A DNA stretch of 64,000 nucleotides, taken from the NCBI RefSeq assembly GCF_001677475.2, contig NZ_CP015229.1, one strand, 5' to 3'. A program made the position numbers and the translations under genes. Under the pieces are notes generated by a model. The model had not been told where the DNA came from, searched no databases, and was given only the letters and a program-made list of their open reading frames with translations. This document shows, piece by piece, positions 26,879 to 28,525 of the stretch (position 1 is its first letter; each line of letters opens with the position of its first letter). This DNA is from Escherichia coli (GTDB lineage: Bacteria; Pseudomonadota; Gammaproteobacteria; Enterobacterales; Enterobacteriaceae).

Positions 26879-28525
26879 ATGAATGGCGCACAGTGGGTGG
26901 TACATGCGTTGCGGGCACAGGGTGTGAATACCGTTTTCGGTTATCCAGGTGGCGCAATTATGCCGGTTTACGATGCATTGTATGACGGCGGCGTGGAGCA
27001 CTTGCTGTGCCGACATGAACAGGGCGCGGCAATGGCGGCTATCGGTTATGCCCGTGCTACTGGCAAAACTGGCGTATGTATCGCCACGTCTGGTCCGGGC
27101 GCAACCAACCTGATAACCGGGCTTGCGGACGCACTGTTAGATTCCATCCCTGTTGTTGCCATCACCGGCCAGGTCTCTGCGCCGTTTATCGGCACGGACG
27201 CATTTCAGGAAGTGGATGTCCTGGGATTGTCGCTAGCCTGTACCAAGCACAGCTTTCTGGTGCAGTCGCTGGAAGAGTTGCCGCGCATCATGGCTGAAGC
27301 ATTCGACGTTGCCAGCTCAGGTCGTCCTGGTCCGGTTCTGGTCGATATCCCAAAAGATATCCAATTAGCCAGCGGCGACCTGGAGCCGTGGTTCACCACC
27401 GTTGAAAACGAAGTGACTTTCCCACATGCCGAAGTCGAGCAAGCGCGCCAGATGCTGGCAAAAGCGCAAAAACCGATGCTGTACGTTGGCGGTGGCGTGG
27501 GTATGGCGCAGGCAGTTCCTGCTCTGCGTGAATTTATCGCTGCCACAAAAATGCCTGCCACCTGCACGTTGAAAGGGCTGGGCGCAGTAGAAGCAGATTA
27601 TCCGTACTATCTGGGCATGCTGGGAATGCACGGCACCAAAGCGGCGAACTTCGCAGTGCAGGAGTGCGATCTGCTGATCGCCGTAGGCGCACGTTTTGAT
27701 GACCGGGTGACTGGCAAACTGAACACCTTTGCACCACACGCCAGTGTTATCCATATGGATATCGATCCGGCAGAAATGAACAAGCTGCGTCAGGTACATG
27801 TGGCTTTACAGGGTGATTTAAATGCTCTGTTACCAGCATTACAGCAGCCGTTAAATATCAATGACTGGCAGCAACACTGCGCGCAGCTGCGTGATGAACA
27901 TGCCTGGCACTACGACCATCCCGGTGACGCTATCTACGCGCCGTTGTTGTTAAAACAACTGTCGGATCGTAAACCTGCGGATTGCGTCGTGACCACAGAT
28001 GTGGGGCAGCACCAGATGTGGGCTGCGCAGCACATCGCCCACACTCGCCCGGAAAATTTCATCACCTCTAGCGGCTTAGGCACCATGGGTTTTGGTTTAC
28101 CAGCGGCGGTTGGCGCACAAGTCGCGCGACCGAACGATACCGTCGTCTGTATCTCCGGTGACGGCTCTTTCATGATGAATGTGCAAGAGCTGGGCACCGT
28201 AAAACGCAAGCAGTTACCGTTGAAAATCGTCTTACTCGATAACCAACGGTTAGGGATGGTTCGACAATGGCAGCAACTGTTTTTTCAGGAACGATACAGC
28301 GAAACCACCCTTACTGATAACCCCGATTTCCTCATGTTAGCCAGCGCCTTCGGCATCCCTGGCCAACACATCACCCGTAAAGACCAGGTTGAAGCGGCAC
28401 TCGACACCATGCTGAACAGTGATGGGCCATACCTGCTTCATGTCTCAATCGACGAACTTGAGAACGTCTGGCCGCTGGTGCCGCCTGGCGCCAGTAATTC
28501 AGAAATGTTGGAGAAATTATCATGA
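26879..28525 (+). CDS. ilvG: Acetolactate synthase II large subunit IlvG (intact 548-aa reading frame)
   Basis: [38 protein letters not shown]..., uninterrupted 548 codons; stop overlaps the ilvM start. Confidence 0.93.

Follow-up and report, generated by a model that had tools for sequence, protein, structure and literature searches.

ilvG in K-12 and other E. coli strains

Acetohydroxyacid synthase (AHAS) II is free of feedback inhibition by valine. Its paralogous isozyme AHAS I is valine-sensitive and pairs with IlvN, not with IlvM. The ilvG gene of AHAS II is frameshifted in E. coli K-12, which is valine-sensitive (PMC8605374, PMC6483228), and it is intact in the strains B, W and Crooks (PMC3032704, PMC3446290). 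The K-12 lesion has been described as "two separate base pair insertions" (PMC3032704). A functional ilvG accounts for differences between B and K-12 strains (PMC3446290), and uropathogenic E. coli are reported to need the gene for growth in human urine (bioRxiv 10.1101/2025.10.31.685768).

The window considered here, by which we mean the entire 64-kb stretch of E. coli DNA that was analysed, is collinear over its whole length with MG1655 3,923,650-3,987,813, the gene order being mnmG, oriC, rbs, rrnC, ilv, rep, rho, the wec cluster and hemY. Our reading of its ilvG, to which we assign a probability of about 95%, is that it is the ordinary wild-type gene of a non-K-12 E. coli lineage, situated in a complete ilvL-ilvX-ilvG-ilvM-ilvE-ilvD-ilvA operon.

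The ilvG reading frame and its junction with ilvM

Both the list of open reading frames and direct translation give a single ATG-initiated frame at 26879..28525 (+), which runs for 548 amino acids, from MNGAQWVV... at the N-terminus to ...NSEMLEKLS at the C-terminus, and then ends in TGA. An earlier note on this DNA, made from the letters alone, had described the frame as continuous from MNGAQWVV to the C-terminus and as overlapping the start of ilvM. Re-translation of 26879..28525 bears this out: there are 548 codons with no internal stop, and the overlap takes the form of the tetranucleotide ATGA (28522-28525), in which the ilvG stop (28523-28525) and the ilvM start (28522-28524) share bases. 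The product fits the NCBIfam equivalog model NF006524 (acetolactate synthase 2 catalytic subunit) over its full length: it scores 1074.1 bits, where the curated threshold is 738 bits, and its residues 1-547 align on profile positions 1-547 of 548. Because of this score the open frame is a real gene, the AHAS II catalytic subunit, and a chance ORF is excluded. Exactly the same protein is already on record, as ANO91722.1 and in other E. coli entries, on 36 public contigs.

Comparison with the MG1655 pseudogene

The MG1655 ilvG (b4488) is annotated as a pseudogene of 1,645 nt; the window gene has 1,647 nt. An alignment of the two around codons 320-330 had been proposed in the earlier note as the place to look, and it is indeed at codon 326 that the sole indel of the global alignment lies. 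Here the window has two additional bases, 'AT', at 27855..27856 (+), their placement in the pairwise alignment being ambiguous by one base within AAATATCAAT. The local sequence is ...CCGTTAAATATCAATGACTGG... in the window and ...CCGTTAAATCAATGACTGG... in K-12, and the corresponding translations are ...PLNINDW... and ...PLNQ*: with the dinucleotide present the frame stays open, whereas in K-12, which lacks it, the reading frame changes and runs at once into a TGA. The K-12 type of pseudogene allele, a 2-bp deletion followed by an in-frame TGA (…TTAAATCAATGA…), is not what the window carries, since it reads …TTAAATATCAATGAC… at this point. In our alignment, then, it is K-12 that has a 2-bp deficit relative to the window allele, in contrast to the pair of insertions given in PMC3032704.

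The indel is accompanied by 47 substitutions (97.1% nucleotide identity), and the window gene is clearly not identical to the K-12 pseudogene; such an identity would have undone the claim of the earlier note. When compared with a frame-restored K-12 ilvG, 41 of these changes are synonymous and six are non-synonymous, and the resulting dN/dS of 0.042 indicates strong purifying selection on ilvG. The six replacements are, with the window residue first, S146/C, I220/L, V306/A, A342/S, H344/R and P494/H. Three of these sites, 146, 342 and 494, set K-12 apart, with the window on the side of the majority: eight other IlvG proteins from Escherichia and Shigella have S146, A342 and P494 like the window, with the exception of a T342 in two of the proteins and an S494 in one.

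Lineage, divergence and recombination

The window as a whole is about 98% identical to MG1655, with values between 92% and 99.8% in individual 1-kb windows. In the 4-kb ilv segment the identity to K-12 is 97.85% (84 mismatches), and it falls to 92-96% in the region of the ilvA 3' end, ilvY and ilvC, especially at 32001-35000. K-12 sequence background was thus found neither in ilvG nor around it. An NCBI draft assembly of a non-K-12 E. coli (GCA_025810455.1), in contrast, shows 100% identity across 7,647 nt of the window (23879-31525). The window comes from a non-K-12 E. coli lineage, because ilvG has 47 substitutions and the 64 kb are only about 98% identical to MG1655.

These figures also bear on the possibility that the source is a K-12 strain which had regained its ilvG, by spontaneous reversion to valine resistance (the "ilvO" type) or by engineered repair. 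The frame is open exactly where that of K-12 is broken, and such revertants and repairs are on record (PMC8605374, bioRxiv 10.1101/2025.10.31.685768). However, in the spontaneous revertants that have been reported (PMC8605374) a single base is lost at the premature stop and the AT is not recreated, and a restored K-12 gene would have to be reconciled with the 47 substitutions in ilvG, with the 84 mismatches of the ilv segment, with a divergence of about 2% that extends across flanks which are not K-12-identical, and with complete identity to a draft assembly that is not K-12. We consider this origin extremely improbable and have rejected it. Of the two backgrounds that the earlier note had offered, "non-K-12" consequently stands, and an "ilvG+ derivative" of K-12 does not: the substitutions in ilvG, the divergence over a collinear 64 kb and the identical wild-type draft assembly all speak against the latter.

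The lineage from which the window derives appears to be sparsely represented among the complete RefSeq E. coli genomes. Against the 5,426 genomes of this kind, identity reached at most 98.1% for ilvL-ilvM and 97.3% for 25001-39000, and in the flanks 99.0% (1-25000) and 98.1% (39001-64000). The low best identities for ilvG (98.1%) and the ilv cluster (97.3%) raised the suspicion of a foreign, introgressed ilvG allele, and this idea was abandoned. The window ilvG differs at 39 nucleotides from that of strain HS, at 62 from that of MEW and at 47 from that of K-12, while these three differ among themselves at 34-53 positions (HS versus MEW, 50); since the window allele is no further from HS, MEW and K-12 than they are from one another, it lies within the normal diversity of E. 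coli ilvG. The GTDB species representatives, moreover, contained no exact match to a 51-mer or a 24-mer spanning a cluster of five SNPs at 27169-27181. These five differences from K-12, all of them synonymous, fall within 13 nt (codons 97-101), and dS is three times higher in the first part of the gene (0.156 for codons 1-326) than in the second (0.049 for codons 327-548). Such a pattern suggests a recombination breakpoint inside ilvG, and we regard the allele as ordinary E. coli polymorphism, made mosaic by recombination.

Distribution of the intact allele

Of the 5,426 complete E. coli genomes in RefSeq, 340 contain the exact 80-nt K-12 junction. Sixty of the 340 were listed; they are K-12 derivatives from the laboratory, such as MG1655, C600, J53, DH5alpha, DH1, RR1 and HMS174, or strains whose labels point to a laboratory or are uninformative. 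Every one of the non-K-12 genomes that were sampled has 82 nt at the junction, i.e., the two extra bases are present, and the 82-nt junction of the window itself is found exactly in 1,404 complete genomes. An intact ilvG is the normal state of E. coli and K-12 is the exception. The window carries an already well-known wild-type allele, correctly read, and there is nothing unusual about it.

The same counts are relevant to whether the open frame could be an artefact of sequencing or assembly, with a homopolymer or dinucleotide error hiding a frameshift. Nothing specific speaks for this beyond the site being a short AT-rich run (AAATATCAAT). Against it stand both the exact recurrence of the 82-nt junction in 1,404 complete genomes and the presence of the 7.6-kb region, identical or nearly so, in independent NCBI and Logan assemblies, so that we give an artefact next to no credence.

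The ilv operon

The gene is preceded by the elements of an attenuator-controlled operon. The leader peptide gene ilvL (26641..26739, +; 32 codons, MTALLRVISLVVISLVVIIIPPCGAALGRGKA) was identified by comparison with K-12 and by its score of 79 bits against NF007744 (cut-off 59). Its peptide differs from that of K-12 by one residue, V15L, with TTG (Leu) at 26683-26685 where K-12, HS and MEW all have GTG (Val). Both residues are regulatory amino acids of the operon, and the exchange lies in the region of attenuation control. Downstream of it, a terminator-like site at 26764..26795 (+) has the form of the attenuator: a G+C-rich hairpin, CCCCCGCACC-GAAA-GGTTCGGGGG, followed by T8. It lies inside a match of 153.6 bits to Rfam RF02744 (26570-26859), a family of 5'UTRs that was defined in soft-rot Enterobacteriaceae. 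This match spans the ilv leader and is the sole Rfam match in 26300-29000; there is none inside ilvG in the range searched. Relative to K-12 there is a C-to-T change at 26781, in the 3' arm of the hairpin; an effect on the terminator seems unlikely, because this stem position is unpaired (a C-C mismatch) already in K-12. The small ORF ilvX (26826..26876, +; 16 codons), which is annotated under this name in MG1655 and other genomes, translates into a peptide identical to K-12 IlvX.

On the other side of ilvG, the AHAS II small subunit is encoded immediately downstream by ilvM (28522..28785, +; 87 aa), with a score of 133.9 bits against NF008362 (cut-off 68) and a protein identical to K-12 IlvM. 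It is followed by ilvE (28805..29734, +), the branched-chain aminotransferase of 309 aa, again identical to the K-12 protein; by ilvD (29799..31649, +), an intact ORF for the dihydroxy-acid dehydratase of 616 aa, collinear with its MG1655 counterpart; and by ilvA (31652..33196, +), an intact threonine deaminase gene of 514 aa when counted, by comparison with K-12, from the equivalent start. All parts of this attenuator-controlled ilvLXGMEDA operon are collinear with MG1655.

Two small differences from K-12 were seen at the junctions of ilvA with its neighbors. At the ilvD/ilvA junction (31649-31654) an A-to-G change (K-12 TAATAATGG, window TAATGATGG) gives a second ATG in frame, at 31649, which precedes the K-12 ilvA start by one codon and overlaps the ilvD stop. 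At 33193-33196, the 54-nt REP-like spacer that K-12 has between the convergent ilvA and ilvY is missing, so that the ilvA TAG overlaps the ilvY TAA (complement) and the window IlvY is one residue shorter (PNH* versus PNHK*). The ilvA/ilvY overlap is likewise annotated in strain MEW, which makes K-12 the variant in this case.

Protein family and predicted function

The protein has the three-domain architecture of a ThDP-dependent enzyme, the precomputed Pfam matches on the identical protein being TPP_enzyme_N (PF02776), TPP_enzyme_M (PF00205) and TPP_enzyme_C (PF02775). Its closest solved structure is the large subunit of E. coli AHAS I, 6LPI (E = 7e-162, residues 2-544 aligned), and none of the other acetolactate synthase models listed for the window protein names isozyme I. 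The residues E47, F109, Q110, K159, M250, H251, R276, V375, the GDG at 427-429 (with D428), N455, M460 and W464 are all present. From AHAS II mutagenesis we take E47 to be the catalytic glutamate, GDG...N to be the ThDP-Mg motif, and F109, Q110, M250, R276, V375 and W464 to be the specificity residues. The presumed catalytic and cofactor residues sit in invariant columns of an alignment of nine Escherichia and Shigella proteins, composed of the window IlvG and the eight others mentioned above. In this alignment I220 and H344 are found in the window alone, and V306 is common to the window and one other protein.

These unusual residues could be taken to mean that ilvG, although open, is non-functional or altered, through missense changes (I220, V306, H344) or through those in the leader and attenuator (IlvL V15L and C-to-T at 26781). 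I220 and H344 are, after all, absent from the eight other proteins, and leader codon 15 is unlike that of K-12, HS and MEW. However, the three residues are at no known catalytic position, each of the catalytic and cofactor residues named above is kept, and the exchanges are mild: L-to-I and A-to-V are conservative and R-to-H is semi-conservative, from basic to basic. The leader change merely substitutes one regulatory residue for another (Val to Leu), and position 26781 was unpaired to begin with. When we add to this a dN/dS of 0.04, which denotes purifying selection, and the presence of the identical protein on 36 contigs, an impaired ilvG seems very unlikely. A related and similarly doubtful proposal, though we would put it slightly higher, is that the locus is tuned unlike that of typical E. 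coli, given the combination of a rare IlvG allele (I220, V306, H344), a leader with Leu15 and an ilv cluster that is at most 97.3% identical to any of the 5,426 complete genomes. If this were so, the kinetics of the enzyme or the balance of Leu/Val/Ile sensing at the attenuator could shift.

In our preferred reading, that of an ordinary wild-type gene, the window ilvG should give rise to a working AHAS II that valine does not inhibit. The ilvG product would be the ThDP- and FAD-binding catalytic subunit of this enzyme, and IlvM, translated from the overlapping ATGA junction, would join it as the small subunit. Together they would condense pyruvate either with pyruvate or with 2-ketobutyrate, the first common step toward valine, leucine and isoleucine. 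The strain would be expected to grow in the presence of valine, because AHAS II is not feedback-inhibited by this amino acid, and ilvEDA should be free of the Rho-dependent polarity that results from the frameshift in K-12. We infer the enzyme activity, the valine insensitivity and the lack of polarity from family membership and established knowledge, the valine insensitivity in particular from the former together with PMC6483228 and PMC3446290.

Other features of the window

Several further differences from K-12 were encountered outside the ilv operon. In rbsB (12629-13489, +) there is an in-frame deletion of 30 nt, at about 13429-13436 and between 8-nt direct repeats (GAAAGGCG), by which the ribose-binding protein loses VETADKVLKG (residues 272-281 of the K-12 precursor) close to its C-terminus; the deletion also falls within the sRNA rbsZ as annotated in MG1655. 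At 36189-36680 (-) an unbroken ORF of 163 codons occupies the place of the K-12 pseudogene yifN, a homolog of which is annotated in strain MEW as a PemK/MazF-family type II toxin. The aslB-aslA region (59001-62000) is 93.6-95.6% identical to K-12, and it includes the most indel-rich kilobase of the window (60001-61000, with 22 gapped positions). By collinearity with MG1655 3,925,744-3,925,975, oriC is located at about 2095-2326, with a 13-mer-like site, GATCTATTTATT, at 2095.

Comparison with known ilvG systems

The significance of these results is one of annotation: the window is not from K-12, the biology is established and no new question is opened. The strain should carry all three AHAS isozymes, the valine-insensitive one included, and so the valine sensitivity of K-12 and its polarity on ilvEDA should not apply to it.

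Among the described systems, the large subunit of AHAS I, IlvB (PDB 6LPI), has the enzyme family and the fold in common with IlvG, as well as the ThDP/Mg motif and the catalytic glutamate, but it is a paralogous isozyme, and the top model for the window protein is the AHAS II equivalog. The MG1655 b4488 has the same locus, the same flanking genes and 97.1% nucleotide identity. It differs in that it has no 'AT' at codon 326 and ends at a TGA after ...PLNQ, where the window continues, and in having C146, S342 and H494 instead of S146, A342 and P494. Finally, the wild-type ilvG of the strains B, W, Crooks, HS and CFT073 corresponds to that of the window: all encode 548 aa, at the same position in ilvLXGMEDA, with the same ATGA overlap and with the two bases at codon 326. 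Their IlvG proteins are 98-99% identical to that of the window and are separated from it by ordinary allelic polymorphism only, with I220 and H344 as the residues that, within the small set compared, are specific to the window's lineage.
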